Shown: in pieces, positions 23,248-39,707 of the stretch
Layout of the letters: each line of letters begins with the position of its first letter
How positions within the stretch are numbered: the stretch's first letter is position 1
Assembly (NCBI GenBank): GCA_963795855.1
Contig: CAWCIZ010000001.1
Coordinates: forward strand, 480,001 to 544,000
Direction of reading: 5' to 3'
Length of the DNA stretch: 64,000 nt
Source of the DNA: Vulcanimicrobiota bacterium
Lineage (GTDB): Bacteria; Vulcanimicrobiota; Vulcanimicrobiia; Vulcanimicrobiales; Vulcanimicrobiaceae
Notes under the pieces: generated by a model
Databases searched by the model: none
What the model saw: the letters and a program-made list of their open reading frames with translations, nothing else
What the model was told of the DNA's origin: nothing
Made by a program: the position numbers and the translations under genes

Positions 23248-23518
23248 TTTAAAAGGCGCTCCAGCCGAGCTTCCGCGCCCCCCACAAAGTGGGGCCCCCG
23301 ATGGGATCGATAGGCGGAAGGAATTGCCGCGTTACGACGCAGCAATTCCATGCTTGCAAAAGGCTTTGTACAAAGGCGCTCCAGCCGAGCTTCCGCGCCC
23401 CCCACAAAGTGGGGCCCCCGATGGGATCGATAGGCGGAAGGAATTGCCGCGTTACGACGCAGCAATTCCATGCTTGCAAAAGGTTTGGTACAAAGGCGCT
23501 CCAGCCGACCCACAAAGG
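23248..23518 (-). repeat. tandem repeat, 120-bp period, about 2.2 copies, containing hairpins
   Basis: AAAGGCGCTCCAGCCGA at 23252, 23372 and 23492; near-identical units. Confidence 0.97.
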
Positions 23519-23524
23519 ATTTCA

Positions 23525-24928
23525 TCAGTGGCGCACCTTCGGGTCGCTGGAAGCGGACAGATAACTGATGATGTCCTGGCGCGTCAGGACGCCGATGGGT
23601 TCGTCTTCATCGGTGACGACCACGGCGTGGTTCGCGAGCGTCAGAAGTTTGTAGGCGAGTTCGATTTCTTCGCTTTGATCGAGCACCGGGAACGGCCGGC
23701 CCATTACTTCGCTTACGGGCTGATGAATGATGTCGGCGCGGTCGAATACCGCCTGCATCACCGCAATGTCGTTGATGCTGCCGATTTGTTCCGTTCCGCG
23801 CATCACGGGAATTTGCGATATTTCGTACTGCCGAAGGAGATCCAGCGCAGTTCGCACCGCATCCGTATCCTTCACCGTGATGAGCGGCGGCAGCGGGCGT
23901 TTGCTGCGCAGTACGTCGCCGACGGTTGCGCGCCGCTTGCCTTCCGAGAGGAAGCCGTTCGCGATCATCCACTCGTCGTTGAATATCTTCGACATATAGC
24001 CGCGGCCGGAATCGGGAAACAGCACAACCAGCACGGCGTCCGCCGGAAGCGTTTTTGCCAGTTTCATCGCGGCGACGGCTGCGGTGCCGGACGATCCCCC
24101 AACGAGCAAACCCTCTTCCCGCGTGATGCGGCGCGCGGTCAGAAACGACTCGCGATCCGAAACGCGTACCATCTCGTCGATCACCTTCATGTCGACCGTT
24201 TCGGGCAGATACGACATGCCGATGCCTTCAACTGCGTACGACTTCGGCGTGTCCCCCGAGTAAATCGAGCCTTCGGGGTCCGCGCCGATCACGTGAATCT
24301 TCGGGTTTTGCTCTTTCAAATAGCGCGCTGTTCCGGAAATCGTTCCGCCGGTGCCGATTCCGGCCACGAAATGCGTGATGCGTCCGGCGGTCTGCGTCCA
24401 GATCTCGGGGCCGGTCGAGTGATAGTGCGCTTCCGGATTGTGATGATTGTGAAATTGATTCGGTTGAAATGCGCCGGGAATCTCGGACGCCAGGCGATTC
24501 GCCACGCCGTAATAGGATTCGGGCGAATCGTTCGGCACGTTCGTCGGCGTGACGACCACTTCGGCGCCGTACGCGCGAAGCAGATCGACTTTTTCCTTGG
24601 CCATCTTGTCGGGCATGACGAGGATGCAGCGATAGCGCCGAATCGCCGCCGCCATTGCAAGCCCCGATCCGGTGTTGCCGCTCGTCGGCTCGACGATCGT
24701 TCCGCCGGGCTTGAGCAGACCCGCACGTTCGGCGGCGTCGAGCATTGCGACCGCAGGGCGATCTTTCACGCTGCCGCCCGGATTCATGTATTCGACCTTG
24801 GCGAGCACCAAACACTGCGCGCCGTCCGTTACCTTATTCAGCCGTACGAGCGGGGTGTTTCCGATGGCTGCGAGCGCATCGTCGAAATACTGCATGCCGG
24901 AACGCGTGTCCGACGCGGTGGTCGTCAA
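23525..24928 (-). CDS. cystathionine beta-synthase with C-terminal CBS domains
   Basis: NPGGSVKDR, EPTSGNTG, GIGTGGT, DSGRGYMSK; GGAGG RBS before TTG. Confidence 0.93.
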   Translation of the reverse strand: MTTTASDTRSGMQYFDDALAAIGNTPLVRLNKVTDGAQCLVLAKVEYMNPGGSVKDRPAVAMLDAAERAGLLKPGGTIVEPTSGNTGSGLAMAAAIRRYRCILVMPDKMAKEKVDLLRAYGAEVVVTPTNVPNDSPESYYGVANRLASEIPGAFQPNQFHNHHNPEAHYHSTGPEIWTQTAGRITHFVAGIGTGGTISGTARYLKEQNPKIHVIGADPEGSIYSGDTPKSYAVEGIGMSYLPETVDMKVIDEMVRVSDRESFLTARRITREEGLLVGGSSGTAAVAAMKLAKTLPADAVLVVLFPDSGRGYMSKIFNDEWMIANGFLSEGKRRATVGDVLRSKRPLPPLITVKDTDAVRTALDLLRQYEISQIPVMRGTEQIGSINDIAVMQAVFDRADIIHQPVSEVMGRPFPVLDQSEEIELAYKLLTLANHAVVVTDEDEPIGVLTRQDIISYLSASSDPKVRH

Positions 24929-25032
24929 GGTCTTCGCCTCCAGGGAAGATGGGGTGAACGCGCCTTCCGCGCTCTCGCGGGATGGCCCTGCGGTCGTAGG
25001 CCGGGTATGATAAAGAGAAGAAAGGGAGCCTT

Positions 25033-25377
25033 ATGAAACGCGCACGAGCCCTCGGGCTACTTCTCGCATTCGTCGGCGTTTTTGCATTGGCCGCTTGCGA
25101 CGACTCGGCGCTCCCGCCGGGCGGAACGTATCAGAGCGTTTCCGGCGTCGTACTCGATGCGGCGACGAATCGGCCCGTCTCCGGAGCGGCGGTAACGATC
25201 GACACCGTGCTTACGGCGACGACGGATGCTGCCGGAAAATTCTCGTTTGCGAAAGTACCCGTCGGCGACATCGACTATCAGGTAAGCACGCCGGACGGCA
25301 CGTACAAGGCCTATACCAGCAGCGCGCACTTGGCGCCGGACAAACCGCTGGCGCTCACTATAACGCTTTCGCACTAA
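25033..25377 (+). CDS. lipoprotein with carboxypeptidase-regulatory-like domain
   Basis: Lipobox LAAC, SGVVLDAATNRPVSGAAVTI..TDAAGKFSF. Confidence 0.8.
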   Translation: MKRARALGLLLAFVGVFALAACDDSALPPGGTYQSVSGVVLDAATNRPVSGAAVTIDTVLTATTDAAGKFSFAKVPVGDIDYQVSTPDGTYKAYTSSAHLAPDKPLALTITLSH

Positions 25378-26471
25378 TGGCGCCGGCGATGCGCGTGGTC
25401 ATCGCTCCGGACAAATTCAAGGGACGTTTGACCGCCGCGCAAGCCGCGGATAAAATCGAACGCGGCATGCGTGCGGTGCTGCGCGATGCGGAATTCGTCG
25501 TTGCGCCCATGGCGGACGGCGGTGAAGGAACGGTCGATGCATTCGTGCGCGCCGGCGCTCGAAGACTCAGCGCGCAAGTCGCGGGCCCGCTCGGCGAATC
25601 GATCGATGCGGGGTTCGCGGTGCTCGGCGGTACCGCAATTATCGAGATGTCCGCCGCTTCGGGCTTGCAGCTCGTGCCGGAGGATCGCCGCGACGTGCTG
25701 CGTGCGGACACGTACGGCACCGGTCAACTCGTGCGTGCCGCGCTGGACGCCGGCGCGAGTCGAATCATTATCGGGCTCGGGGGAAGCGCAACCAACGATG
25801 CGGGAACGGGCATGCTGCGCGCGCTTGGCGCCGTATTTATCGATGAAACAGGTGAGACGCTGGACCGCGCGATCGCGCGTTACCGCAGGCTCGATGAAAT
25901 CGACATGTCGGGGTTCGATGCGCGCGCGCTGCGCATTCCGGTACTTGCTGCAAGCGACGTCGACAACCCGCTATGCGGTCCGCACGGCGCGTCTCGCGTC
26001 TACGGGCGGCAAAAGGGCGCAAACGCCGCGCAGGTTACGCTGCTCGATTCGGCGCTCGAACGCATCGCGGACGTTGCCGCACGCGCGTGCCGGCGCGACG
26101 AACGCGATACGCCGGGCGCCGGCGCTGCCGGCGGCCTCGGGTACGCACTGCTGCAGTTTTTGAACGCGGAGGTGAAACGCGGCGTCGACGTCATGGCCGG
26201 CGAACTCGCGCTGCAGCGCGCGCTGCATGGCGCGTCGCTGTGCGTTACCGGCGAGGGAAAGATCGACGATCAGACGCTGCGCGGCAAAACCGTCAGCGGC
26301 GTAGCAGAACTTGCGGCATCCGAGCACGTTCCGGTGGTGGCCTTCGCGGGCCTGGTCGAGCCGCACGCGCGGCAAGAACTCGAGGACCGCGGCATCACGG
26401 TGCGGCAGGCGGATTCGACCGCTCTGGAAAGCGCAGCGCGAGAATTCGCGAGTCAGTTTGCGCAGCGGTGA
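25377..26471 (+). CDS. glycerate kinase
   Basis: APDKFKG, MADGGEGT, GLGGSATND, GAAGGLG, TGEG. Confidence 0.93.
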   Translation: MAPAMRVVIAPDKFKGRLTAAQAADKIERGMRAVLRDAEFVVAPMADGGEGTVDAFVRAGARRLSAQVAGPLGESIDAGFAVLGGTAIIEMSAASGLQLVPEDRRDVLRADTYGTGQLVRAALDAGASRIIIGLGGSATNDAGTGMLRALGAVFIDETGETLDRAIARYRRLDEIDMSGFDARALRIPVLAASDVDNPLCGPHGASRVYGRQKGANAAQVTLLDSALERIADVAARACRRDERDTPGAGAAGGLGYALLQFLNAEVKRGVDVMAGELALQRALHGASLCVTGEGKIDDQTLRGKTVSGVAELAASEHVPVVAFAGLVEPHARQELEDRGITVRQADSTALESAAREFASQFAQR

Positions 26472-26763
26472 CGGTTATCGTCGCCTTCATTCCCGGATGG
26501 TACGTGCACACGTATGCGAACGTGCCTTCCTTGGTAAACGTGTACTTCCACGATTTGCCGCCGTCGATGTCTGCGGACTGAAAAGCGTCGCTGCTGACGT
26601 TGTGCGTGACCGGATCGTCGTTTTGGAATACGACGCTGTCCCCGGTGTGCACGGTGAGCGCGGCAGGCTTAAAGGCGAAATCGACGATATGGACGGTCGT
26701 CGTTGCGGGCGCGCCGGCGCCGAGCGTCAGCGCCGCGAGCAAAGTGAAAACGCCGGTCTTCAT
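26395..26763 (-). CDS. secreted cupredoxin (plastocyanin/amicyanin-like)
   Basis: Signal peptide, HNV and CTYHPGM type-1 copper ligands. Confidence 0.9.
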   Translation of the reverse strand: MKTGVFTLLAALTLGAGAPATTTVHIVDFAFKPAALTVHTGDSVVFQNDDPVTHNVSSDAFQSADIDGGKSWKYTFTKEGTFAYVCTYHPGMKATITVTAAQTDSRILALRFPERSNPPAAP

Positions 26764-26806
26764 CCCGCCAGCGTGGCGGACAAATATGAAAGATTTCTGA
26801 AGGACG

Positions 26807-28153
26807 CTACGCGGGGGAGTTCGAGCGCTGTTCGTAGACTTGCGCCGGGCGCATGTACGACGCGCGCTGCGCGATGGCGCGATCGATGACGCCCATGACG
26901 ATGTGAGCGAGTTTTTCAGGATCGTGACGCACGGTCACGGTTTCGCTGATGACGTGCGCGTGAACCGGTGTGAGCCCCAGCGCGCGAATGCGTTCGAGAT
27001 CGGGCGCGACCGGAATCTGCCCTTCCTCCGCGTACGCCTCGAGCAGTTTGGAAGGCGGCTCGTCGTTGACCACGACGTAATCGCAAACGCGCGCCCCCGC
27101 ATTTTCCATCAGCGCTTCCACGTGGTCGGCGGCGCTCATCGCATCGGTTTCGCCAGGCTGCGTCATGACGTTGCAGACGTACATCTTCACGGCTGAAGAC
27201 GCGGCGACCTCACGCGCGATGCGATCCACCAAAAAGTTCGGCAGAATCGAGGTGAACAGGCTGCCCGGTCCGAGCACGATCGCGTCGGCCTCGCGAATTG
27301 CGGCGATCGCTTCCGTAAGCGGCGCCGCGTACGGCGGATCGAAGAAAACTTGCTTGATTCGCTTGTGGGATTTCGAGATGTTGGTCTCACCCTCGATCAC
27401 GGTGCCGTCGTCCAGACGCGCGCACAAGTGCGCGATGCCGAGCGTCGCCGGCAGCACGCGCCCTTTGATGTTCAGCACGCGGCTCGATTCTTTGATCGCG
27501 CGATCGAAGTTGCCCGTGATGCCGGTCATCGCGGCCAAAAACAGATTCCCGAACGAGTGCCCCGTCAGGCCTTCCCCTTCGTGAAAGCGATAACGAAACA
27601 GATCGGTGACCATGGCCTCGTCGTCCGCTAGCGCCACCAGGCAGTTTCTCACGTCGCCCGGCGGGAGCACGCCGAGCTCTTTTTGCAGGCGTCCGGAACT
27701 GCCGCCGTCGTCGCTTACCGTGACGATCGCCGTGAGATTAGTGGTTTTGCTTTTCAAACCGCGCAGCAGCGTGGAAAGACCCGTGCCGCCGCCGATCGCG
27801 ACGATTTTGTAACCGTGACGTAAGCGCATGGAGTAGAGCGTGTCGAGGATATGCTCGTTGCCGCCCATCGCGCCGGCGCGCAGAATCGCGAGCAGCCATT
27901 GACGGATGCCCAGAAAGATCAGCGCGACGCCGACGATGATGGAGATCCACGCCAAGTATCCCGGTGGAAAATAATCGGTGACGAAGCTGTCCACCAGTTC
28001 GTTCGCATGCAAATCGAAGCCAATCGCGACGAGGTACCGATCGATCCCATTCACGAGCAGCAAAATACCGGCGATTGCGACGATGAGCCAGCGTTTGATG
28101 CCCAGGCCGGGGTACGCCCAGCGCAGAACCGGCGGCACGCGGTTGAGCGTCAT
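26807..28153 (-). CDS. yvcK: YvcK/GlmR family protein with N-terminal TM segments
   Basis: IGGGTGLS, DDGGSSGRL, PPGDVRNC, GHSFGNL, GPGSLFTS. Confidence 0.93.
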   Translation of the reverse strand: MTLNRVPPVLRWAYPGLGIKRWLIVAIAGILLLVNGIDRYLVAIGFDLHANELVDSFVTDYFPPGYLAWISIIVGVALIFLGIRQWLLAILRAGAMGGNEHILDTLYSMRLRHGYKIVAIGGGTGLSTLLRGLKSKTTNLTAIVTVSDDGGSSGRLQKELGVLPPGDVRNCLVALADDEAMVTDLFRYRFHEGEGLTGHSFGNLFLAAMTGITGNFDRAIKESSRVLNIKGRVLPATLGIAHLCARLDDGTVIEGETNISKSHKRIKQVFFDPPYAAPLTEAIAAIREADAIVLGPGSLFTSILPNFLVDRIAREVAASSAVKMYVCNVMTQPGETDAMSAADHVEALMENAGARVCDYVVVNDEPPSKLLEAYAEEGQIPVAPDLERIRALGLTPVHAHVISETVTVRHDPEKLAHIVMGVIDRAIAQRASYMRPAQVYEQRSNSPA

Positions 28154-29007
28154 CGGCTCTCGTCCCGTGTGTCGAGATAGACGTCGGCGAGCGCCTGGCG
28201 CTCCAAATGATCGAACAAGCGGCGGCCGATGTAAATCGACCGGTGGCGCCCACCGGTGCACCCGATGCCGATCGTGAGTTGCGATTTGCCTTCGGCCAAA
28301 AAGCGCGGCATCAAGAAGTCCATCATGTCGAACAGCCTATCCAGAAACGGCGCGAGGGCGGCATCCGTTTCGATGTATTCGGCGACCGCCGGGTCGGCGC
28401 CCGTGAGCGGCCGCAGGCCTTCCACGTAGTTCGGATTATGCAGAAAGCGGACGTCGAAGAGCATGTCGAGATCGAGCGGTATCCCGTACTTGAACCCAAA
28501 GGCGACGAGCGTGACCGAAAGCGCGCGTTCGGATTCGACTAGGAACGTCGCAGACAGCCGTTCTTTGAGATCCGCGTGCGTGATGTTGGTCGTATCGATG
28601 ACTTGGGTCGCAAGTGCGCGCAGCGGCGCGAGCGCGGTTCGCTCGACCGCGATCGCCTCGCGCACCGAACCGACCGATGCGAACGGGTGGCGGCGCCGCG
28701 TTTCGCTGTAACGCCGCACGAGCACGTCGTCGCGCGCATCCAGAAAGAGCAGCTGCGGGCGGTGTCCGTCGGAGGAAATTCGGCTGATCAGCGGCACCGC
28801 TTCCCCGAGCGTACCGCCGCTGCGCACATCGAGTGCCAAAGCGACCTCGCGCACCTGTGCGTCCTTAAGGAGCGAGAGGGTTTGCGGAACGAGCTTCGGA
28901 GGAAGGTTATCTACACAGTAAAAGCCCAAGTCTTCAAGCGTCTTCATCGCCTGACTCTTCCCGGCGCCCGAGAGTCCGGTCACGAAGACGAGCCGTTCTA
29001 GAGCCAT
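28150..29007 (-). CDS. rapZ: RNase adapter RapZ (YvcJ)
   Basis: TGLSGAGKS, VDNLPP, RYSETRRRHP, FGFKYG, GCTGGRHRS. Confidence 0.96.
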   Translation of the reverse strand: MALERLVFVTGLSGAGKSQAMKTLEDLGFYCVDNLPPKLVPQTLSLLKDAQVREVALALDVRSGGTLGEAVPLISRISSDGHRPQLLFLDARDDVLVRRYSETRRRHPFASVGSVREAIAVERTALAPLRALATQVIDTTNITHADLKERLSATFLVESERALSVTLVAFGFKYGIPLDLDMLFDVRFLHNPNYVEGLRPLTGADPAVAEYIETDAALAPFLDRLFDMMDFLMPRFLAEGKSQLTIGIGCTGGRHRSIYIGRRLFDHLERQALADVYLDTRDESR

Positions 29008-29034
29008 CCGACGCACCCGGAGCGTGCACACGTC

Positions 29035-29430
29035 ATGAAACTGTTTTCGCCCGAAAAGGCCAACGCCCTCATCCCGAAGGTCGCCCCGCTCGTCGAGGAG
29101 TTGTGGGCAAAGCGCCGGGACTTGGCGATTCGCCTGCTCGAGAGCGATCCGGTGCTGCGCGGAACCGAACCCACCCCGTATTCGCGTATGGCCACGCCGC
29201 GCTCGCCCTTCACGCCGGGCCGCTTTAGCGAACAGAAGGCGGAGATCGTGCGCATCATCAACCGGATCGAAGCGTACGGGTGTCTCGTGAAAGACATCGA
29301 CCTCGGATTAATCGATTTTCCGTCGATGCGAGAGGGCCGCGCGGTGTATCTGTGCTGGAAAGCCGGAGAAGAACGCATCGCGCATTGGCACGGGATGGAC
29401 GAAGGCTTCTCCGAACGCAAAACGCTGTAA
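29035..29430 (+). CDS. DUF2203 domain protein
   Basis: FSPEKANALIP..VKDIDLGLIDFP..YLCWKAGE..HWH..GF. Confidence 0.85.
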   Translation: MKLFSPEKANALIPKVAPLVEELWAKRRDLAIRLLESDPVLRGTEPTPYSRMATPRSPFTPGRFSEQKAEIVRIINRIEAYGCLVKDIDLGLIDFPSMREGRAVYLCWKAGEERIAHWHGMDEGFSERKTL

Positions 29431-29434
29431 CGAG

Positions 29435-29460
29435 AAAAGGCCCGCTTCAGCGGGCCTTTT
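29435..29460. terminator. bidirectional intrinsic terminator
   Basis: AAAAGGCCCGCT-TC-AGCGGGCCTTTT between convergent genes. Confidence 0.85.
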
Positions 29461-29484
29461 GCTTTCTGCGATCCGGTTCGATTC

Positions 29485-29895
29485 TTACGGCGCGGTGACC
29501 GTAGCTTCGACCGGGATGAAATCTTCAGCCAAACCTTGCAGCCGCACTTCGCCGAACTCGGCGGTGTACGCGCCGGCTTCCGCGCTTCTGATTTCACCGA
29601 TCTCCGGAACGTTCGCAAGCTGCGGAATCTTGGAACGAATCTCGTCGGGAATGCGCACCTTGTCCCCGACCGCGAGCTTGCCCTGATCCCAAAGCGCGTT
29701 CAGGCTCTCGAGCAACATCGGTAGTGGAATACCGTAATCTTCGCTGACGGCGCCGATGGTGTGCGACTCGCTGATCGCACAGTTCGAACAGCCTCCCAAG
29801 TGGAATCGCGCGAAGACGCGACGCGCACCGGCGTGGAGTTTGAACGCCTGGTCGACGGTCATTTCGGGGGTGAAACGTTGCTCGGTCATACTCAT
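29485..29895 (-). CDS. DUF1858-like redox (CxxC) domain protein
   Basis: FTPEMTV..VFARFHLGGCSNCAISESHTI..YGI. Confidence 0.65.
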   Translation of the reverse strand: MSMTEQRFTPEMTVDQAFKLHAGARRVFARFHLGGCSNCAISESHTIGAVSEDYGIPLPMLLESLNALWDQGKLAVGDKVRIPDEIRSKIPQLANVPEIGEIRSAEAGAYTAEFGEVRLQGLAEDFIPVEATVTAP

Positions 29896-29904
29896 ATCCT
29901 TCGC

Positions 29905-31595
29905 CTAGAACGCCTGGTGGCTCCCGCCGGTTGCAGTTAGCAGCTCCAAACGCCGCCGCAGGTCGCGAATCGCAATCGTATCGATGGCGTGGCCGACGGC
30001 GGTAGCGAGGGAAGCAAGCGCGTCCTGCTCGTCCGGTGCGTACGTCTCGTCGTCGACCTTGGGGCCGCATACCAGTATGCCCAGTACGTCGCCGCGCACG
30101 ATCATGGGAACCGCCAGCGTCCCGGGCAGCGCGGAGCCGGATTCGCGCACGTGCACGGTAACGCGGCGAGCGCGCATCGCGACGATCGCGGGATCGTTTT
30201 CGTCGACGGTGGGCGCGAGGGCAAACGTCGTAGCAGCAGCACGGTACGTCACGCCCTCCGCAATCCATACGCCTGCGCCGCGCGCGCGAGCGTATCGTTC
30301 CACGGTGTTCACGCAGCGTGAAAGCAGAACTTCGGCGTCGGTAATATACGCCGCGTCTTCTGCGAAGTCGCGTATTGCGGCTTCGGCAAGATGGCGCTCG
30401 CGGAAGAGGACGCTGTCGACGAACAGATCGACGCGCGCATGCACGTAGCGAATCGAAAAGCCCAGCGCCAACGCAACGGCGAGCTGCACGGCGACGCTCG
30501 TGACGTGGCTCGTGTTCTCGACGTATTTCGCAAGCAGCGTTTCGACGACGACGAAAACGCCGACGACCACGAGCGACACGCCCGTGTACACCACCGCGCG
30601 ATTGAGGACGAAACCGACGTCGATGACGCGATGACGCAAGATGACGTAGGCCAGGCCAATCGGAAGCACCGCCAATGAAAGCAGCGTAGCTGGTCCACCA
30701 GCGGACTGAAGCCGAAGATGCCGCTGACGGCGACGTCGACGAGCGGACCCGACAATCCAACGCCCAGAATCACGAATACCCAGCGCCGCCTCTGCCGCTC
30801 GTCCGGCGCGCCTTGCACGTACGCTGCGATGAGCGTCGCGACCACGAGCAGGCTGATGAGCACGAACGAAAACAGAAACGCCGCGGAGAGTACGGAAAGC
30901 GTACTCGCGGAGTGAGGCAGCCATTCGCCGATCGAAAGGCCGCCGGCGGCGGCGATTGAGAGAACGAGTGCAATGCGAGAAAGCGTGCCGGGAAGCGGAT
31001 GTGCTCGCCCTGACGGAAACAAGGCTGCGAACTGCGCCGCTGCGGCAACTCCAAGCAAGAGAAGTCCCAGATCCACGACCTGCATCACGATCAGCGAGAG
31101 CAGCGGGCTCGGGAGTACGCCGTTCGAGAGCGCGATGGCAAGTCCGTAACACCACAGAAACGCGACCAGTGCCCGCCCGGCACGATCGTCGGGTCTGCGC
31201 CACGCCAACAGCGCGGCTACGACCAGAAACGCGAGTCTGAGCATCGTCACGGCCCAGAGCGTTTCCATGCGCGCAAAAGGCTTGGCGGTGAACGAAACGC
31301 GCCGCGTGCCGTTTACCAGGACTGTAACGCGCGAACCGGGCGTCGCATACAAGACGCGCGCGCGGTCCAGTGCGGTATCGCCGTACCAGATCGTGTCGCC
31401 GGCGCGAATGCCGGCGCGCGCCGCGGCCGAGCCGCTATCGACGCCCGTCACCTGGACGACGCCCGCATTCCGGGGCGGCACCCGCAAGTGCAGTCCGAAT
31501 TCGTCGCGGTCCGGCAACGTCAACTGGTAGCCGACGAACGCAACCGCCGCTGTAATGAACAACAGTGCGAGGGTGCGCCACACCGCAGGCCTCAT
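29905..31595 (-). CDS. PDZ + multi-TM + GAF membrane protein, apparent frameshift near 30685
   Basis: VDSGSAAARAGIRAGD (PDZ), several TM helices, YVILRHRVIDV, LAVPMIVRGDVLGILVCG (GAF). Confidence 0.8.
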
Positions 31596-31615
31596 GGCGG
31601 AAGAATTACGGAAAT

Positions 31616-31632
31616 TGCGGAGTACGCCTGTA
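31616..31632. repeat. 17-bp direct repeat of the rnpB 3' end (att-like site)
   Basis: TGCGGAGTACGCCTGTA identical to 32264-32280. Confidence 0.85.
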
Positions 31633-31657
31633 GGCGGGCGGGGCGGGAAGGCGTCAG

Positions 31658-31666
31658 TGCTATAAT
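31658..31666 (+). promoter_or_regulatory. extended -10 promoter element
   Basis: TGCTATAAT 9 nt before ATG 31676. Confidence 0.55.
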
Positions 31667-31675
31667 TTAAACACT

Positions 31676-32260
31676 ATGAAACGTTTGCTCGCCTGCGCAG
31701 CGTGGGGTGCTGTTGCGCTATTGCCGGTGGCCGCAGGTGCCGTACCGACTACCGTCATTACGCAAACCGCTGCCCCCGTGCAGATCAAGTCGTGTTCCGC
31801 CACAGTAGCGCTATCTGTCCCCGGGTGGTCGAACAATGGCGCGTCCTATGGCCAGTCCGGGTCCGGTGTCGCGGGAATGTCCACCAACGGCCACAGCGTC
31901 TCTTATGGGTCGGGCGATTATTCGGACCATGAAGGTTACCTTTTGGGTCCGTTTTCCGGCGGAACGGACGTCTACGCAACGGCACAGTCCGAAAATCAAT
32001 CCCAAAAAATAGTCACCGGCGTTGTCTACGAATTCAATGTACTGAAAGCGGGCAGCAGCGATCCGCTCGCGATTTTCTACGGCGGCGAAACCGGCAGTTT
32101 TGGAGAAAACGTCGTCATCTCACCGGCGAGCCGGGAAAATCCATCATGGAGCACTAGTCTCGGCGAGACACGCGTCGGCTCCATCGCCTGTTTTATAGCA
32201 TACGTGCGCTTCAGCGACGGCAGCGATTGGACTTCTCCGCTGGCTGTTGTCACGAAGTAG
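31676..32260 (+). CDS. hypothetical secreted protein
   Basis: Signal peptide, two Cys, C-terminal YVRFSDGSDW; more A/T-ending codons than neighbours. Confidence 0.75.
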   Translation: MKRLLACAAWGAVALLPVAAGAVPTTVITQTAAPVQIKSCSATVALSVPGWSNNGASYGQSGSGVAGMSTNGHSVSYGSGDYSDHEGYLLGPFSGGTDVYATAQSENQSQKIVTGVVYEFNVLKAGSSDPLAIFYGGETGSFGENVVISPASRENPSWSTSLGETRVGSIACFIAYVRFSDGSDWTSPLAVVTK

Positions 32261-32264
32261 AACT

Positions 32265-32745
32265 GCGGAGTACGCCTGTAAGCCGGATTCTGTCCCCCGG
32301 CGTGTCGCCGGAGTGACGGCCATCTCTCTTGGCCGCGCGTTGCCGCGAGGCTCGATGCGACGTAGCTCGTTCGGACGGGCAGTCCGCTCCCTCGCCGAAG
32401 CGGTGGAGATATCGAGCGGTCTTGCTTCAGGTGGGGTTTACCCGAGCGCACGTCACCGTGCGGCTCCGTGAGCTCTTACCTCACGATTTCACCCTTACCC
32501 CAAATTGCTAGCGCAATTTGGGACCCCCGTCAGTTTAACAGGCACTCCGGTGCAAGCACCTGCGTGCCCCCCACACGCAAAGCGCGTGGGTCCCCCAGCG
32601 GTCCCAAAAAAACGTTTAGCATTTGGGGCGGTATGTTTCTGTGGCACTTTCCTTCGAGTTTCCCCGACAGGACGTTATCCTGCACCCTGCCCTGTGAAGC
32701 CCGGACTTTCCTCGCCTTGCGGCGCGGCCGTCCGGCGTACTCCGC
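32265..32745 (-). ncRNA. rnpB: RNase P RNA (type A) with enlarged P12
   Basis: GAGGAAAGTCCGGGCT, AGTGCCACAGAAA, GGGTGAAA, GGTAAACCCC, ACAGAATCCGGCTTA; P1 pairing GCGGAGTACGCC/GGCGTACTCCGC. Confidence 0.97.
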
Positions 32746-32819
32746 GACGCGAGTGTACCACGCGGTGGCGTAAAAGCGAATGGCCCCGGATGCAACGCGG
32801 CCATTCAATGTTCTGAATT

Positions 32820-32895
32820 TGGTGGAGGCAAGGAGACTCGAACTCCTGACCCTTACGCTGCCAGCGTAATGCTCTACCAACTGAGCTATGCCCCC
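32820..32895 (-). tRNA. tRNA-Ala(GGC)
   Basis: Canonical cloverleaf, G3:U70, TTACG-CTGGCAG-CGTAA, encoded CCA. Confidence 0.96.
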
Positions 32896-32935
32896 GAAGC
32901 GACCCGCCATGCTTCCCGGCGGGTGCGCAACATCC

Positions 32936-33009
32936 TGGAGATGAGGGGATTCGAACCCCTGACTTCCTGCTTGCAAAGCAGGCGCTCTACCAACTGAGCT
33001 GACATCCCC
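32936..33009 (-). tRNA. tRNA-Ala(TGC), one extra base between acceptor and D stems
   Basis: GGGGATG/CATCTCC with G3:U70, CCTGC-TTTGCAA-GCAGG. Confidence 0.94.
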
Positions 33010-33144
33010 GTTTCTTCGACCGCCGCACGTTCGCAAGGTACCGGTTTCGCACCTGCAAACGTCGAACGGCCCAACGCTAAGATTCGCGTCATGCCTTGCG
33101 CGCCGCCCGCCAAAAAGCCGATACTAAAGATGGAGGCGAAGACG

Positions 33145-33987
33145 ATGATCCATGCGCTGCTTTTGGCCGCTCTGGGTGCCGTTCCGCCGTGTTGGGACGT
33201 CTTCGATGCTGCGCTGCGTCACAACGCAAACGGTGCGCATCCGCCGTACGTAACGTATAGCGAACGAATATCCGTAACTGAAGATCGCACTCCGCTCGTT
33301 TCGAGTATCGCGTATGTGGACTACCGCGACGACGGCGTTGCGCGCGTCATGGACGAGCGATTCAACTACGAACCATTCGTGACGCGTCATGCCGAACCGG
33401 GGCCGCCGGAATTGGGTCCGTATGGAACCAGGCGCGAAATGTGGCTGCCGGATGCCGGCGGCCTGCCGATCATCGCGCAGGTGCGAACGATGGGGGACGT
33501 GACGTGCACGATTGCCGATGAAGAGCCGTACAAGTCACACGAGACGTATCACTTGCATTTCAGCGGCGGACCGGCCACGCGGCCGTCGCTCAAAGACTTA
33601 TGGGTCGACACGAGAACGCGGGACATCTGGAAGCTCGAGATCACCGGTCCCGTCACGTTTTGGAGCGAAGGCAATCGCGATAACGAACTCGCGGAATTTC
33701 AAGTAGAGCTCGGCTATACCGGTCCATACCTGCTCGTGAATCATGTCGTGTGGGCGTACAGCCGCAGAGAGTATTCGCAGCGCGTCGACTATTTCGGCGA
33801 ATACACGTTCAGCGATTACGAATTTCCGGCGAAGATGCCGGCGTCGTTTTTCGGCAACGTGGCCGCAGCTTCCGATCTAGTTGCGAGCGGCCGTAAAAAA
33901 GCAGCCCCGCTTTCGCGGGGCTGCGGTATTGGTGGGCCATCCAAGGCTCGAACTTGGGACCTCATGCTTATCAAGCATGCGCTCTAA
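33145..33987 (+). CDS. hypothetical exported protein, possible LolA-like fold; 3' end doubtful because it reads through a terminator into tRNA-Ile
   Basis: GGAGG RBS before MIHALLLAALG; motifs shared with 10884-11621. Confidence 0.7.
   Translation: MIHALLLAALGAVPPCWDVFDAALRHNANGAHPPYVTYSERISVTEDRTPLVSSIAYVDYRDDGVARVMDERFNYEPFVTRHAEPGPPELGPYGTRREMWLPDAGGLPIIAQVRTMGDVTCTIADEEPYKSHETYHLHFSGGPATRPSLKDLWVDTRTRDIWKLEITGPVTFWSEGNRDNELAEFQVELGYTGPYLLVNHVVWAYSRREYSQRVDYFGEYTFSDYEFPAKMPASFFGNVAAASDLVASGRKKAAPLSRGCGIGGPSKARTWDLMLIKHAL
33895..33924 (-). terminator. intrinsic terminator after tRNA-Ile
   Basis: GCAGCCCCGC..GCGGGGCTGC hairpin with A6 on + strand. Confidence 0.85.
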
Positions 33988-34006
33988 CCAACTGAGCTAA
34001 TGGCCC
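33930..34006 (-). tRNA. tRNA-Ile(GAT)
   Basis: GGGCCAT/ATGGCCC acceptor, CATGC-TTGATAA-GCATG, encoded CCA. Confidence 0.96.
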
Positions 34007-34060
34007 GAACAAGTCCTAATCTTACCACACGGTGCAAGGCGCCCCTGCCGGCTCGGCCGA

Positions 34061-34273
34061 CTAGATCATAGCGATGTACTTCTTGAGCGCTTCGTCGTCG
34101 TCTTTGAGCTGGGCGAGCATCATGTCGCGCAGCACGTTGGCTTCGCGCTCGAGTTCCGCGCGTTCTTCCATCTCTCGATCGAACGTCGCTTGTTGCGCCG
34201 TGACGGCATCGTCGGCAGCCGGTTTGGCAGCACGCGCGGGCGTACGCGCTGCCATTTTCGTGCGATCGATCAC
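34061..34273 (-). CDS. small helical hypothetical protein
   Basis: GTGA overlap with upstream gene; C-terminus paralogous to that gene. Confidence 0.75.
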   Translation of the reverse strand: MIDRTKMAARTPARAAKPAADDAVTAQQATFDREMEERAELEREANVLRDMMLAQLKDDDEALKKYIAMI

Positions 34274-34647
34274 TCGGTAATCGACTCGATGAATTTCTTG
34301 GTAATGGCGTCGTCGGCTTTGCGCTGCGCCATCTGAACGTCGCGAAGCGTGTTCACCTCGCGCATCTGCTCCGACTTCTCGTCCATCATCTCGTCAAACG
34401 CCTCGGATTGCACTTGCATCTGCTCTTGGTGCTGAATTTGCTCGGTGTACATGTAGAGTTGGAAGGCTTCGTCGCCGGCGTTAATCGCTCCGAGGCCGCC
34501 GTTTCCCAGCGCACCGGTCAAGTTTCCGGCCGTCGTGCCGCCCATCACGCCTCCGGCGAGCGCGCCGATGCCGGCCAGCAGCGGATTTCCCGTCATCGCG
34601 TACGTCTGCGCACCCATACCCAGCGCGGAACCGATATTCATTTGCAT
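34270..34647 (-). CDS. hypothetical protein, Gly-rich hydrophobic N-terminus and coiled-coil-like C-terminus
   Basis: 125-aa ORF, M/Q/E-rich helix, operon-like spacing. Confidence 0.8.
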   Translation of the reverse strand: MQMNIGSALGMGAQTYAMTGNPLLAGIGALAGGVMGGTTAGNLTGALGNGGLGAINAGDEAFQLYMYTEQIQHQEQMQVQSEAFDEMMDEKSEQMREVNTLRDVQMAQRKADDAITKKFIESITE

Positions 34648-34656
34648 GGTGCGCGC

Positions 34657-34908
34657 CTATGCAGCGATCAGATCCGCATACGACGAGAGCGCGTTCACGT
34701 TCTGCTGCGCCGTCGGATTTTCGGCGCTGAGTTCGTCGAGAAGAGGGCTGAACGTGGGCACCGGCGTCGTTCCGCCCGACTGTGCGGACGAATTCGATAG
34801 CAACGCCATCGCGCCGGCGCCGGCTGCAACGACCGGGTTTGCCGTTTCGGCAAGGGTGAGAAGGCCGGTCGTCACGCCTTTGACGATGCCTCCGAGACTC
34901 AGGTGCAT
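34657..34908 (-). CDS. small hypothetical protein (83 aa)
   Basis: AAGGAG RBS before MHLSLGG; shares modules with both neighbours. Confidence 0.75.
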   Translation of the reverse strand: MHLSLGGIVKGVTTGLLTLAETANPVVAAGAGAMALLSNSSAQSGGTTPVPTFSPLLDELSAENPTAQQNVNALSSYADLIAA

Positions 34909-34957
34909 ACGGTAACTCCTTAAAGTGAGATGCGCAGCGCTATCACGCCCGGCCGCG

Positions 34958-35620
34958 CTAGTTGCTAGATCCGTCCTGCGCAAAAACGATCGATCCGAAG
35001 TCCGGACTATTGTCGCGCGGACGGTTCGGATACGACTGCGGCAGTTCGCTCGGGCAAAGTGCGGGCGCAGGCACCTGAAGCGATGCAAATGACGAGAGTG
35101 CATTGACTGAGGCTTGTTCGTCTTGGCTATCCGCCGACAGCGCCTGCGTCAAAGTTTCCGGCGTGTCGCCTTGGAGGTCGGCGTAATGGCGAAGGACCGA
35201 GTCGGCGTAGCCGAGTCGTCGCCCGTCTTGCCACGACGTGATGGTCCCCGAGGCGTTCGGGTCGCCGGCATTGTACGCCGAAAGCGCCCTATGAACGTCG
35301 CCGCCGTAGCGTTTGAGTAGACCCGAGATCATCCCGGCGGCGTAGTCCGCATTCGATTGCGGATCCATTGCTGCCGCAGTAGTGGCGAAGGAATGGTAGC
35401 GATCGTCGATTTGGAAGATGCCGCGGCCATGGCCGCCGTCTCCGACGACGTTGCGGCCGGCATTGCTTCCCGGACCGCCGGTTTCTTGGGCGGCTACTGC
35501 CGCCAGGAGGGCCGGGTCTACGTGATACTTCCCTGCCGCGCTGGCGATTTCGGGCGCAAAGGCCACCCCGTGGAGCGCGAGCGAGCGGGCGGTCTGCGGG
35601 ATGCTCGTGACGATACTCAT
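34958..35620 (-). CDS. lytic transglycosylase (SLT domain)
   Basis: VDPALLAAVAAQE catalytic Glu, GIFQI, ALSAYNAG. Confidence 0.88.
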   Translation of the reverse strand: MSIVTSIPQTARSLALHGVAFAPEIASAAGKYHVDPALLAAVAAQETGGPGSNAGRNVVGDGGHGRGIFQIDDRYHSFATTAAAMDPQSNADYAAGMISGLLKRYGGDVHRALSAYNAGDPNASGTITSWQDGRRLGYADSVLRHYADLQGDTPETLTQALSADSQDEQASVNALSSFASLQVPAPALCPSELPQSYPNRPRDNSPDFGSIVFAQDGSSN

Positions 35621-35650
35621 GGTGCGGTACCGTCACGACGACAACGCCGT

Positions 35651-35680
35651 TTGACAATCCGCTTCCGGGGGGTCTACAAT
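35651..35680 (+). promoter_or_regulatory. sigma70-type promoter for yceD-rpmF-fab operon
   Basis: TTGACA-18 nt-TACAAT. Confidence 0.7.
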
Positions 35681-35729
35681 GTCTCGAGTTTAGAAGGCCC
35701 CCCAAAGCCGGGCGGCCTTCCTCTATGTT

Positions 35730-36206
35730 ATGGCTTCTTCGCACAAGGTCGATATCGGTGCTCTGCTCGCGGGTGGACGTCAGCGTCTCTCCGTCGATCA
35801 GCAAGTGGCTCTGGAGCCGTTCGAGGGAATCACCTTTCCCGAACCGGCGCGCGTGCATTTGGACATGCACTCCACCGGAGACATGCTCGAGATTGCCGGA
35901 ACGATCGATGTCGGGGTCCATAGCGAATGCAATAGATGTTTGGGCGAGGTCGATCGCGCGATGCACGTCGACGTCGACGAGCAGCTTTCGACGGATGGTG
36001 AGGCGCAAACCGATCCCTTCGCCGAGAGCAACGTTCTGACGGGTGACCGTTTGAACGTCGACGATCTAACAACGCAGTTGGTGTGCAGCGCCGTCCCGCT
36101 CGGCATGCTGTGCGCGGAAGACTGCAAGGGCATCTGTCCGGCTTGCGGCGAGAACAAAAACACGGGCGCGTGCACGTGCGCACCCGACGGGGACCAGCCC
36201 GCGTAA
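35730..36206 (+). CDS. DUF177/YceD family protein
   Basis: ECNRCL, LCAEDCKGICPACGENKNTGACTC; precedes rpmF. Confidence 0.92.
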   Translation: MASSHKVDIGALLAGGRQRLSVDQQVALEPFEGITFPEPARVHLDMHSTGDMLEIAGTIDVGVHSECNRCLGEVDRAMHVDVDEQLSTDGEAQTDPFAESNVLTGDRLNVDDLTTQLVCSAVPLGMLCAEDCKGICPACGENKNTGACTCAPDGDQPA

Positions 36207-36228
36207 GGGCAAACGGAGAACGAAAACA

Positions 36229-36435
36229 GTGGCGAACCTGAAGTGGAAAACTCCGCGCAGCAAGACGCGCAGCCGTCGCGCGGCCAATTGGAAATTGAAC
36301 GCGGTGACGACGGTCGAGTGTCCGCAGTGTCACGCGCCCAAGCGCCCGCACTTCGTATGCGAGCATTGCGGAACGTATGCTGGCCGGCAGGTCATTGAGG
36401 TTAAGGACGAGCACGCCGGGCATTCACACGGCTAA
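36229..36435 (+). CDS. rpmF: 50S ribosomal protein L32
   Basis: KWKTPRSKTRSRRA..CPQC..PHFVCEHCGTY. Confidence 0.95.
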   Translation: MANLKWKTPRSKTRSRRAANWKLNAVTTVECPQCHAPKRPHFVCEHCGTYAGRQVIEVKDEHAGHSHG

Positions 36436-36438
36436 ACG

Positions 36439-37428
36439 TTGAATTCGACCGGCGTCAGGATCCTCGCCGTGGGGCATCACGCGCCGCCGGGGATTCTCAC
36501 CAATGAGGATCTGGAAAAGGTGCTCGACACCTCGGACGAGTGGATTACCACGCGCACCGGAATGAAGCGCCGTCACGTTTCCGCGCCGGAACAGGCGACC
36601 AGCGATCTCGCGATATACGCGGCGCGCGCCGCACTCGAAAGCGCCGGGCTTCAGCCTCCGGACATCGACTGTTACATCGTGGCCACCGTGACGCCGGACT
36701 TCCCGTTTCCCGCGACCGCGTGCATTTTGGCTTCGAAACTCGGCGCCGCCGGCAAAGCCGCGTTCGACATCGAGATCGCGTGCAGCGGCTTCATCTACGG
36801 CCTTACGGTTGCGTCGAGTTTGATTCGATCCGGCGTATACAAACGCGTGATGCTCGTCGGTGCGGAAACTCTGACGAAGATCGTCAACCGCATGGACCGT
36901 TCCACCGCCGTGCTTTTCGGCGACGGCGCCGGCGCGGTGATTCTCGAGGCGTCGGCCGTGGACTCGTTTCTCTCGAGCGAACTGGGCTCGGACGGAAGCC
37001 GGCCGGAAGTGTTGCGCGTGCCCGCGGGCGGATCGCGCAAGCCGCTCACGCCTTCGGGTTATGAAGCCGGCGAGCAATACATCTATATGGAAGGCCGCGA
37101 AGTCTTCAAATTCGCCGTGACGAAGATGATCGAAGCGACCGACAGCGCGCTCAAAAAAGCGAACTTGGACAAGAGCGACGTCGACTGGCTGATACCGCAT
37201 CAAGCCAATAAGCGGATCATCGATTCGGCGGCAAAATATCTGCAGATGCCGGAAGATAAAGTCGTCATCAATATTCACGAGTACGGCAATACGTCCGCCG
37301 CGTCAATCCCGATCGCGCTTTCGGAAGCGGTGCAGTCAGGGAAGATCAAGAACGGCGACGTGATCGTGTTCGTCGGTTTCGGCGGTGGTCTTTCGTGGGG
37401 CGCGGTCACTTGGAGATGGGCGGCATGA
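36439..37428 (+). CDS. fabH: beta-ketoacyl-ACP synthase III
   Basis: DTSDEWITTRTG, ACSGF, PHQAN, GNTSAAS, GFGGGLSWG. Confidence 0.96.
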   Translation: MNSTGVRILAVGHHAPPGILTNEDLEKVLDTSDEWITTRTGMKRRHVSAPEQATSDLAIYAARAALESAGLQPPDIDCYIVATVTPDFPFPATACILASKLGAAGKAAFDIEIACSGFIYGLTVASSLIRSGVYKRVMLVGAETLTKIVNRMDRSTAVLFGDGAGAVILEASAVDSFLSSELGSDGSRPEVLRVPAGGSRKPLTPSGYEAGEQYIYMEGREVFKFAVTKMIEATDSALKKANLDKSDVDWLIPHQANKRIIDSAAKYLQMPEDKVVINIHEYGNTSAASIPIALSEAVQSGKIKNGDVIVFVGFGGGLSWGAVTWRWAA

Positions 37429-38372
37429 TGCGCGTCGCCGCGATTTTTCCCGGCCAGGGCTCGCAAGTCGTTGGAATGGGCATCGATGCAGCGAACCGCT
37501 CGCGGGCCGCGCGCGGCGTGTTCGACCGCGCGAGCGACATTCTGGGGTACGACGTGCTCGAATTGCAGCGCAACGGTCCGGAAGAAAAACTGCGCGAGAC
37601 GGAGTTCAGTCAACCCGCTATTTTTACGACCAACGTTGCGCTGTACTACGCCGTCGGTGAGGTCCTGCGCCCGGTCGTGAGCGCGGGACACTCGTTCGGC
37701 GAGATCTGCAGTTTGACGATTGCGAACGCGCTCTCGTTCGACGAAGCGCTGCGCATCGTGGACGAGCGCGGTAAAGCGATGCAGTTTGCGGCGCAGCAGG
37801 CGCCGGGCGGTATGTCCGCAGTGCTCGGAATGGATGCGCCGGCGATTCGCGACGTCGTCGCGCGCGTGAAGGCGCAGACCGGCGCGCGCGTTCAGCTCGC
37901 GAACTTCAACTCGCCCGCACAGATCGTCATCAGCGGGGATTTCACTGCGGTGCAAGCCGCCGGCGATGCGCTGCTCGAAGCGGGCGCGAAACGGGTCGTG
38001 CCGCTCAATGTTTCGGGTGCGTGGCACAGCGAGCTGATGCTGCCGGCCGTGTCGCGGTTCGCGCAGGCTGTGACGGCGGCGCAATTCCGTATTCCGGAAT
38101 TCGACGTCGTGTCGAACGTGGACGCGCAAGCGTATCGCGACGTCGACGCGATCAAACGGAATCTCGTCAAATCGATTACCGATGAAGTGCGCTGGCACGA
38201 TTGCGCGCTGCAACTGCTTACGTACGATTTGGAGCTCGTCGTCGAATTCGGCGCTTCACCGGTTTTATCGCCGATGTTCAAACGCTTGCCCGGCGCGCCG
38301 CCGGTGATAAACGTGAGCGATTTTTCCGGCGTGGAAAAGCTGCGCGCCGTGCTCGACGTGATCGATGTTTAG
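37425..38372 (+). CDS. fabD: malonyl-CoA:ACP transacylase
   Basis: FPGQGSQ, GHSFGE, NFNSPAQIVISG, VSGAWHS. Confidence 0.96.
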   Translation: MMRVAAIFPGQGSQVVGMGIDAANRSRAARGVFDRASDILGYDVLELQRNGPEEKLRETEFSQPAIFTTNVALYYAVGEVLRPVVSAGHSFGEICSLTIANALSFDEALRIVDERGKAMQFAAQQAPGGMSAVLGMDAPAIRDVVARVKAQTGARVQLANFNSPAQIVISGDFTAVQAAGDALLEAGAKRVVPLNVSGAWHSELMLPAVSRFAQAVTAAQFRIPEFDVVSNVDAQAYRDVDAIKRNLVKSITDEVRWHDCALQLLTYDLELVVEFGASPVLSPMFKRLPGAPPVINVSDFSGVEKLRAVLDVIDV

Positions 38373-39108
38373 CGGGAAAACGGCGCTCATCACGGGCGCA
38401 AGCCGCGGCATCGGCCGCGCTATTGCCGTGGACCTGGTTAAGAACGGGGCCGGCGTCGCGCTGGTGGGACGCGATTCGGGCGCGCTCCAGGAAACCGTTT
38501 CCGCATGTACGGCGGCGCGCGCGGATGCAAAATGTCTGGTTTTAACCGGCGATGCCGCCGATCAAGCGGCCGTCGACGGATTCGTCGCGCAGACGGTGTC
38601 GGAGTTCGGGCGCGTGGATTTTGCGATCGCAAATGCGGGCCAGTCCATCGACGCACTTCTGCTGCGCCTCAAACCGGAAGCAATCGATCAAATGCTTTCG
38701 GTGAATCTAAAATCCGCCTTTTATTTGTGCGGTGCGGTTGCCCGGCCGATGATGAAGCAGCGCAGCGGCTCCATCGTGCTGATGTCGAGCATCGTCGGCG
38801 TGATGGGAAATGCCGGTCAGGCGGCCTACGCGGCATCCAAAGCCGGCCTGCTTGGGCTGGCCAAGTCGTTAGCGAAGGAATTGGGTTCGAGGAACATAAG
38901 AGTCAACGCCGTCGCGCCGGGGCTCATCGAAACGGCGATGACCGAAAAGATGCCGGACGAGGCGCGCGAGTATCTCCTCAAACAGGCGGCGCTCGGCCGG
39001 GCCGGAAAGCCGGAAGACGTCAGCGGAGTAGTCACTTTTCTCTGTTCGGAAGCTGCCGGGTACATTACGGGACAAACCCTAGTGGTCGACGGCGGCGTTT
39101 TAATGTAA
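38365..39108 (+). CDS. fabG: 3-oxoacyl-ACP reductase
   Basis: TGASRGIG, YAASK, in fab operon. Confidence 0.95.
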   Translation: MFSGKTALITGASRGIGRAIAVDLVKNGAGVALVGRDSGALQETVSACTAARADAKCLVLTGDAADQAAVDGFVAQTVSEFGRVDFAIANAGQSIDALLLRLKPEAIDQMLSVNLKSAFYLCGAVARPMMKQRSGSIVLMSSIVGVMGNAGQAAYAASKAGLLGLAKSLAKELGSRNIRVNAVAPGLIETAMTEKMPDEAREYLLKQAALGRAGKPEDVSGVVTFLCSEAAGYITGQTLVVDGGVLM

Positions 39109-39150
39109 CTGTCCCCGCCGCGCACGCGCGCAGGGGTGTGAAGGAGATGT

Positions 39151-39393
39151 ATGTCCACCACGTTCGATAAAGTCAAGAAGATCATCGTCGAGCAGCTCGG
39201 CGTTGACGAGTCGGAAGTGACGCCGGAAGCTTCGATCACGGATGATCTCGGCGCCGACTCACTCGACCAGGTCGAGCTCGTGATGGCCTTCGAGACGGAG
39301 TTCAACATCGATATTCCGGACGAAGAGGCGGAGAAAATCAAGACCGTCGGCGATGCGGTCAAGCGCGTCGAGGAAGCGACCGCAAAGGAATAA
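39151..39393 (+). CDS. acpP: acyl carrier protein
   Basis: [14 protein letters not shown]. Confidence 0.97.
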
Positions 39394-39707
39394 TCTGTGC
39401 GGCGCCCACGGGGAATGTCTAAGAAAGCAGAGGGTTTAGGCGCCGTGAGTTCTGGGGGCCCCAGCGCGAGTGGGGGGCGCGGAGCTCGGAGAAATCTGTG
39501 CGGCGCCCACGGGGAATGTCTAAGAAAGCAGAGGGTTTAGGCGCCGTGAGTTCTGGGGGCCCCAGCGCGAGTGGGGGGCGCGGAGCTCGGAGAAATCTGT
39601 GCGGCGCCCACGGGGAATGTCTAAGAAAGCAGAGGGTTTAGGCGCCGTGAGTTCTGGGGGCCCCAGCGCGAGCTGGGGGGCGCGGAGTTAGGCGGAGCGC
39701 CTTTTAA
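39392..39707 (+). repeat. tandem repeat, 101-bp period, about 3 copies
   Basis: AATCTGTGCGGCGCCC unit starts at 39392, 39493 and 39594. Confidence 0.97.

Follow-up and report, generated by a model that had tools for sequence, protein, structure and literature searches.

The described system closest to the element treated here is MIRU, a mycobacterial short GC-rich repeat which, as outlined in two accounts, resides inside operons, inserts at start codons and carries an internal open reading frame (ORF) coupled to the next gene (PMC12548453, PMC3184786); in the former account its movement and its translational coupling are still a proposal, dating from 1997 (PMC12548453). Here, a repeat found in a 64,000-nucleotide stretch of a Vulcanimicrobiota genome (hereafter the window) was analyzed. 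An earlier note on this DNA had described it as a dispersed two-hairpin element in mRNA leaders and inside RNase P RNA, and the three loci read exactly as given there (23299-23245 and 32596-32534 on the minus strand, 39656-39710 on the plus strand), as do the additional copies (23372-23419, partial 23492-23512, truncated cores near 39454 and 39555) and the spacing from GGAG to ATG of 11 nt at metB and 10 nt at ffh. The repeat is real, uncatalogued, family-restricted and MIRU-like; the present analysis newly contributes replicated null tests, the filled and empty alleles of the window, a census of hairpin loops and a survey of RNase P RNA genes.

In common with MIRU as portrayed in these sources, the repeat is short and GC-rich, has about 40-50 copies per genome, lies within operons with insertion at start codons, holds an internal ORF coupled to the next gene, is amplified in tandem and has no known transposase. 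The short (tetranucleotide) direct repeats that distinguish filled from empty MIRU sites may have a counterpart here in repeats of 3-7 nt at junctions with known empty alleles. It differs in its host phylum, in its length (105-120 nt as compared to 40-100 nt), in ending with a hairpin that holds GGAG at a fixed distance, in its interchangeable 5' modules, in the mode of coupling (through NTGA, TAATG or an in-tail stop, and not -4 alone) and in a subtype that enters RNase P RNA and tRNA loci. Likened by described features and not by sequence, the repeat appears to work like MIRU. The REP/BIME elements, as presented in PMC3733652, are likewise small intergenic palindromes with DNA-type loops and many copies; they are placed near upstream 3' ends and between convergent genes, whereas the present repeat keeps a fixed position relative to the start of the downstream gene and is nearly absent from convergent gaps. 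The MITE/REP-like assignment of the earlier note was not supported, as terminal inverted repeats, target duplications of fixed length, GTAG/CGTC tags and RAYT were all not found: GTAG or CGTC stands at the hairpin foot in 3 and 4 of 299 copies, RAYT is absent from the genus of the repeat (8 genomes), and the 5' ends differ among copies and bear no relation to the tail, with palindromic GGGG(C/T)CCCC on both sides only in the closed subtype described below. Neisseria REP2 and Borrelia IR-A/IR-B, in the description given by PMC3184786, also immediately precede genes and comprise two stem-loops together with a ribosome-binding site; located where operons begin, these supply a promoter as well as an ATG of their own, whereas the repeat described here is intra-operonic and has a relay ORF.

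Copy Number and Distribution

In the source genome (G000, 3.06 Mb, 86% complete) an iterated hidden Markov model (HMM) yielded 65 matches, 56 of them at E below 0.001, as compared to none in the reversed genome, and therefore the repeat is not a product of chance. A covariance model (CM) yielded 58 matches. The HMM matches group into 44 loci, 13 of which are tandem arrays, so that the proposal of a dispersed, structured repeat with further genomic copies was borne out. The hosts are soil bacteria of the Eremiobacterota (Vulcanimicrobiaceae, Baltobacteraceae): a strict sequence pattern matched 22 of 36 same-family genomes and 0 of 24 others, a looser one 127 of 206 same-family genomes and 3 of 94 others (single matches being near the control level), and with the latter the number of copies per genome across the family ranges from 0 to about 40. 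Genomes flagged as unpublished are counted in these tallies alone. Viral contigs gave no match, and plasmids only short matches at chance level.

Two genomes titled as other phyla (G226 and G228) carry the repeat, yet their ffh is 73-79% identical to that of G000, and by sequence they look like mislabelled relatives. A third, titled Acidimicrobiaceae (G225; ffh 51% identical), holds two antisense copies after flagellin genes (G225:C8; L170, L171), which may represent a chimeric contig or horizontal transfer; the CM found none in 150 other genomes of that phylum (34 candidates scored per genome). G227, titled as another phylum, gave one atypical match. The earlier note recognized no named family, and in the window and 20 loci no Rfam model, and none of the Rfam ribozymes, covered repeat copies at the gathering score; loose thresholds returned only sub-threshold or tRNA-driven matches (E up to 5) in 8 loci. 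A literature search, with few subscription papers within its scope, found no description of the repeat.

Position in Operons and the Bridging Reading Frame

At 36 of the 44 loci in G000 the repeat occupies the sense strand between co-directional genes, the intercistronic position known from MIRU; three loci are antisense, one is in rnpB, and four precede a gene whose upstream call is on the opposite strand (one of them a miscall). Convergent gaps contain none of the loci, as compared to 77 of 827 background gaps. The predicted strand bias (36 sense to 3 antisense) recurred among new metagenome copies, with 69 sense and 16 antisense. The distance to starts proved fixed as well, with a sharp peak 5-9 nt before the start codon that comprises 83 of 174 distinct cores and 65 of 125 new metagenome cores; GTG or TTG is the start codon at 10 of the 83 start-abutting copies. 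The downstream genes, which we name from N-terminal sequences and presume to include argR, prfA, glmS, rpsS, rpmJ, atpA, atpC, accB, smc and gmd, share no common pathway and vary between congeners. Different ribosomal-protein and atp operon junctions are filled in different congeners, e.g., rpsS in G000, rplN in G003 and G007, rpmC in G005 and rpsE in G003.

Comparison of filled with empty alleles was possible at several junctions. Empty alleles are overlapping or abutting stop/start pairs with 0-15 nt between the genes, and filled sites show direct repeats of 3-7 nt beginning at ATG, the left-hand start duplicate being ATGAAAT at metB, ATGCAAT at rpsE, ATGAT at rplN and ATGA at rpmC. This target duplication is seen only where empty alleles exist. 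The cbs-metB junction is filled in two of five congeners (G000 and G004; empty in G001, G002 and G005), and acpP-ffh is filled in four of seven, one of them a remnant, and empty in three. At metB and ffh together, all six empty alleles have GTG and all six filled alleles ATG (L062, L410-L413, L416-L420). From this patchy occupancy in the sequences we infer that the repeat has been mobile. Three antisense copies in G000 lie between rpsG and fusA (C2:147312-147429), between sdhA and sdhB (C2:44590-44681) and between two regulator genes (C4:263780-263852). Furthermore, the ribosomal-protein operon of G003 (L218, L219) and L261 hold an unrelated palindromic repeat, before rpsH, rpmJ and rpsM and in rnpB, which we take to be a CGTC-type REP.

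The reading frame across the repeat is kept far more often than after frameshifts. An ORF bridges from the upstream stop to the downstream start at 21 of 29 junctions in G000, as compared to 8 of 28 and 6 of 28 after shifts of +1 and +2 (4 of 33 junctions had no upstream gene, and about three look like chance motif matches). In an independent metagenome set the count was 40 of 47, as compared to 9 and 8 after frameshifts, the nulls across both sets being 17-29%; the internal coupling ORF of MIRU thus has its counterpart in both sets. A first pass with noisy upstream calls had given bridges at 32 of 49 evaluable loci, with 12 more dropped for want of an upstream call. Moreover, either a tail stop or an NTGA overlap is found in 82 of the 83 copies that abut a start, and NTGA follows 29 of 30 stop-less tails but 23 of 53 other tails; in the replication set from metagenomes the respective values were 61 of 65, 14 of 18 and 25 of 47. 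Eroded remnants at rplF, rpsE and rpmC retain the frame together with CGGAG(C/T)GCC, a motif that occurs 33 times before starts as compared to a median of 2 for 25 permuted motifs. These counts point to the bridging reading frame, rather than the Shine-Dalgarno (SD) motif alone, as the best-supported effect of the repeat.

The earlier note had also suggested that the element can supply a ribosome-binding site, which is supported in part. GGA is retained in 77 of 83 start-abutting copies as compared to 56 of 91 others, so GGAG is preferentially kept at starts, although this was weak in replication. As an SD, it is weak and buried: the 16S tail is canonical in G000, and the pairing of GGAG with it amounts to -5.6 to -5.8 kcal/mol as compared to -11.5 kcal/mol for native acpP, GGAG is buried in a hairpin of -11 to -14 kcal/mol, and its spacing of 10-11 nt is at the long end of the range in G000 (peak 5-8 nt). 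According to these models, GGAG may act as a weak SD that is exposed by the translating ribosome.

Anatomy and Fold of the Repeat

The motif first recognized is the 3' half of a repeat of about 105-120 nt: the core was right, and the real unit is about twice as long and includes a 5' module. A unit consists of a variable 5' module, followed by GGGGGCCCC-hairpin 1-GGGG, by GGCGC-GSA-hairpin 2-GNA-GCGCC and by a T/A tail of 5-9 nt. The commonest 5' module is GGCGC-CCWCGGGGA-variable loop-GCGCC, its stem having been read by eye and not recovered by RNAalifold on a MAFFT alignment, and at least two further types exist. Covariation of the GGCGC/GCGCC stem, as asserted before, was hardly seen, since the stem is near-invariant, with a change on both sides in one of 40 rows (the RNase P copy) and three G-U changes. 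In the whole structure 98% of cells pair in the alignment of 40 cores, and 52 cells changed on both sides as compared to 13.6 after shuffling, nearly all of them in one or the other of the distal hairpins. The fold of single short copies does not surpass that of their shuffles (z -0.90, -0.33 and +0.19), and the mean folding z of full units is only -1.1 with RNA and -1.4 with DNA parameters. The sense strand is the better folder in 25 of 25 units, a preference which persists under DNA parameters.

Among 174 hairpin-1 loops, 73 are GNA triloops, 16 the reverse complement of GNA, 15 TT, two GNRA and one UNCG; GCGNAGC also spans both strands of the internal loop (in 194 and 189 of 299 copies), and all four bases occur at position N of the 3' GNA. 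GCGNAGC is reported as a very stable DNA mini-hairpin, RNA versions of which are much weaker in the data presented (PMC13037366). Because the hairpin loops are GNA triloops of the DNA type, the repeat may be recognized as single-stranded DNA, and of the two alternatives left side by side before, selection on RNA or on single-stranded DNA structure, the loop types favor the latter. Deletions between internal GCGCC repeats are seen among the copies. Nested inserts of about 55 nt occur in either hairpin 1 or hairpin 2 of several copies, and some of them contain words resembling AYGGAY (G000:C3:401429-401545, C4:173642-173758, C6:61564-61680, C4:259932-260150), which suggests hybrids with a TwoAYGGAY-type repeat.

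Origin and Persistence of the Repeat

Taken together, these data probably describe a non-autonomous mobile repeat of operon stop/start junctions, which would be moved in trans as folded single-stranded DNA and would persist by relaying ribosomes to the next gene. We propose that the ribosome of the upstream gene terminates and begins anew at the left-hand copy of the start, reads an ORF of 15-90 codons across the repeat, thereby melting the hairpin that hides GGAG, terminates once more within the T/A tail or at an NTGA overlap, and then initiates on the downstream gene, aided by GGAG 10-11 nt upstream. Selection after arrival would retain the frame and GGAG while the remainder erodes, and peripheral helices would tolerate the insertions found next to tRNAs and in P12 of RNase P RNA. 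Copy number, sites, patchy occupancy, the frame and stop statistics and the loop types were observed directly; mobility, the single-stranded intermediate, translation of the ORF and use of the SD would follow from them.

Several results weigh against this proposal. In a blind test on 59 copies, duplications of at least 5 nt were found in 8 as compared to 4.2 after shuffling (p=0.03), and no excess was found at 3 nt or more. The preference for GGA fell short of significance in replication (58 of 65 as compared to 47 of 60, p=0.14), 8 of the 29 G000 junctions, ffh, prfA and glmS among them, do not satisfy the strict bridging rule, and the copies are related, hence the p-values overstate. At atpA, one locus, 41-44 of 44 core positions are identical (93-100%) in four genomes as compared to 56-66% at fourfold sites; as the whole core and not only the SD is conserved there, the relay alone is an insufficient explanation. 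Furthermore, the anticipated RAYT/IS200-type or reverse transcriptase gene flanked by copies did not turn up in the searches of G000 and the genus genomes: a Y1 transposase was present in 0 of 8 genus genomes and in 9 of 201 family genomes, with no full repeat at any of 21 Y1 loci; no reverse transcriptase (RVT_1), IS110 or DUF559 was detected in G000 at its 86% completeness; and Pfam on the 103 (38 + 65) flanking ORFs that lack a G000 homolog, as opposed to the 289 + 417 ORFs that have one, gave no transposase. GIY-YIG had two matches in G000, a UvrC-like N-terminus and a small stand-alone gene, with no repeat in the 1.2 kb displayed around each.

The sharp 5-9-nt peak and the near absence of copies from neutral convergent gaps could also be read as active targeting, in which the integration machinery recognizes NTG(A) start/stop junctions and survival after insertion is secondary; the break might perhaps fall between N and TG, with the A-rich tail supplying the A of ATG. 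This would agree with GTG in the empty alleles of ffh and metB (3 of 3 each) and ATG in the filled ones (4 of 4 and 2 of 2), and with the antisense copy that likewise occupies the rpsG stop/fusA start junction. We nevertheless regard it as unlikely, given that the change from GTG to ATG could be due to later selection, that GTG or TTG is found at some filled starts, that about half of the copies are not adjacent to a start, and that the closed subtype is located in rnpB and at tRNAs. We know of no enzyme for start-codon-targeted integration of this repeat. In its boldest form, to which we likewise assign only a small chance, a mobile element with an as yet undescribed integration chemistry would recognize start junctions, cut inside the start codon and install a translation adaptor made of a new ATG, a relay ORF and an SD. 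If so, it could invade essential operons harmlessly and leave permanent ribosome-binding sites behind, and MIRU and this element would then represent a general class that targets start codons; a comparison of family genomes rich in the element with those free of it could reveal the enzyme.

Less probable still is a domesticated RNA control element, which would control initiation through a protein bound to its core in the mRNA, e.g., CsrA on GGA or a ribosomal protein on the GNA/GNA loop. The core conserved in place at atpA, the better folding of the sense strand, the GGA motifs and AYGGAY-type loops in some copies would fit with such a role, whereas the unrelated and changing downstream genes, cores eroded at many sites, DNA-type loops, a 3' GNA that accepts all four bases and a strand preference that holds under DNA parameters speak against it. 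Finally, spread without a dedicated enzyme, with palindromic repeats undergoing template switching or gene conversion among themselves, could account for the tandem loci, the internal GCGCC deletions, the inverted P12 core and the lack of a mobilizer in our searches; it appears very improbable, since new sites share no homology with donors and empty junctions measure only 0-15 nt. The repeat family offers a second case for the study of MIRU-type repeats, in hosts that are not pathogens: hundreds of copies, filled as well as empty alleles and a series of eroded remnants are available, and the prediction that the frame is kept stood up to a null test. It also suggests how operon junctions can be rewritten by selfish repeats and receive ribosome-binding sites from them, and the range of copy numbers allows a search for the mobilizing gene.

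Features of the Window and Copies in RNA Genes

The features of the three loci are compiled in Table 1. At cbs-metB, the left copy of ATGAAAT (23525-23519) overlaps the cbs stop as TGATG, the right copy is at 23247-23241, and the frame through the array is preserved by the unit length of 120 nt. The ORF chain at acpP-ffh fails the strict bridging rule; read post hoc, a relay is possible there too.

Table 1. Repeat copies, ORFs and neighboring genes at the three loci of the window.
Feature	Position	Strand	Evidence or remark
Last repeat core before metB: G-run, hairpin 1, GGCGC/GCGCC stem with GNA/GNA loop, T/A tail; ends at the metB ATG	23245..23299	-	CM match, E 9e-14
GGAG of the metB-abutting core	23262-23259	-
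Two tandem full units of 120 nt, 98% identical, with alternative long-hairpin 5' module (23300-23371)	23252..23491	-
Partial 3' hairpin and left copy of the duplicated start ATGAAAT	23492..23525	-	Junction empty in G001, G002, G005
Bridging ORF of 93 codons between the cbs stop and metB, which it overlaps by ATGA	23244..23525	-
metB, cystathionine gamma-synthase-family gene, downstream of the repeat	22069..23247	-	NCBIfam NF005871 above cut-off
cbs, cystathionine beta-synthase, upstream of the repeat	23525..24928	-	TIGR01137 above cut-off
rnpB, RNase P RNA class A	32263..32743	-	Rfam RF00010 (RNaseP_bact_a), 250.8 bits
Extended P12 holding the closed subtype: core 32596-32534, then GGGGTCCC and third hairpin	32497..32630	-	Folding z -5.3
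acpP, upstream of the repeat	39151..39393	+
Three tandem units of 101 nt; 5' module GGCGCCCACGGGGA at 39401, 39502 and 39603; two truncated cores	39387..39707	+
Last full core of the ffh array, GGAG at 39694-39697	39656-39707	+
Chain of three short ORFs (39397-39540, 39546-39641, 39647-39691), ending 16 nt short of ffh	39397..39691	+
ffh (SRP54), downstream of the repeat; ATG start here, GTG in empty congeners	39708..41039	+	TIGR00959

The rnpB copy lies in P12, as do those in other genomes: 5 of 54 rnpB genes have the repeat in P12, it is absent from six of eight congeners, the carriers are scattered on a weakly supported tree, and the core is inverted in G003, so that its orientation is not conserved. 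The copy is thus probably a tolerated passenger. On the same counts, five genes of 54 with one inverted, we rejected the reading that the copy is a conserved functional domain of RNase P RNA. P12 of bacterial RNase P RNA carries expansions, as exemplified for Thermodesulfatator indicus (PMC9945441). The likeness to such expansion segments is the tolerance of P12 for long insertions; the difference is that the insert here is a genome-wide repeat, present in several lineages and in both orientations. Insertions of STRR and RPE also occur in rnpB.

The closed subtype, characterized by an additional GGGG(T/C)CCCC and a third hairpin, is also found beside or within tRNA genes and before infB (L039, L094, L102, L021, L025, L131, L181, L184; G000:C6:64594-64667). 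The closed copy at L102 duplicates the 3' half of a tRNA, and the last GGGG of the subtype can coincide with the 5' end of the tRNA itself. In infB and its neighbors, apparent frameshifts (G000:C6:63357-64480, C4:309400-311600) suggest uncorrected long-read errors in the assembly. Elsewhere in the window, a Gly/Asn/Tyr-rich reading frame with short-period tandem repeats of 15 nt and 9 nt was observed at 61386-61729.

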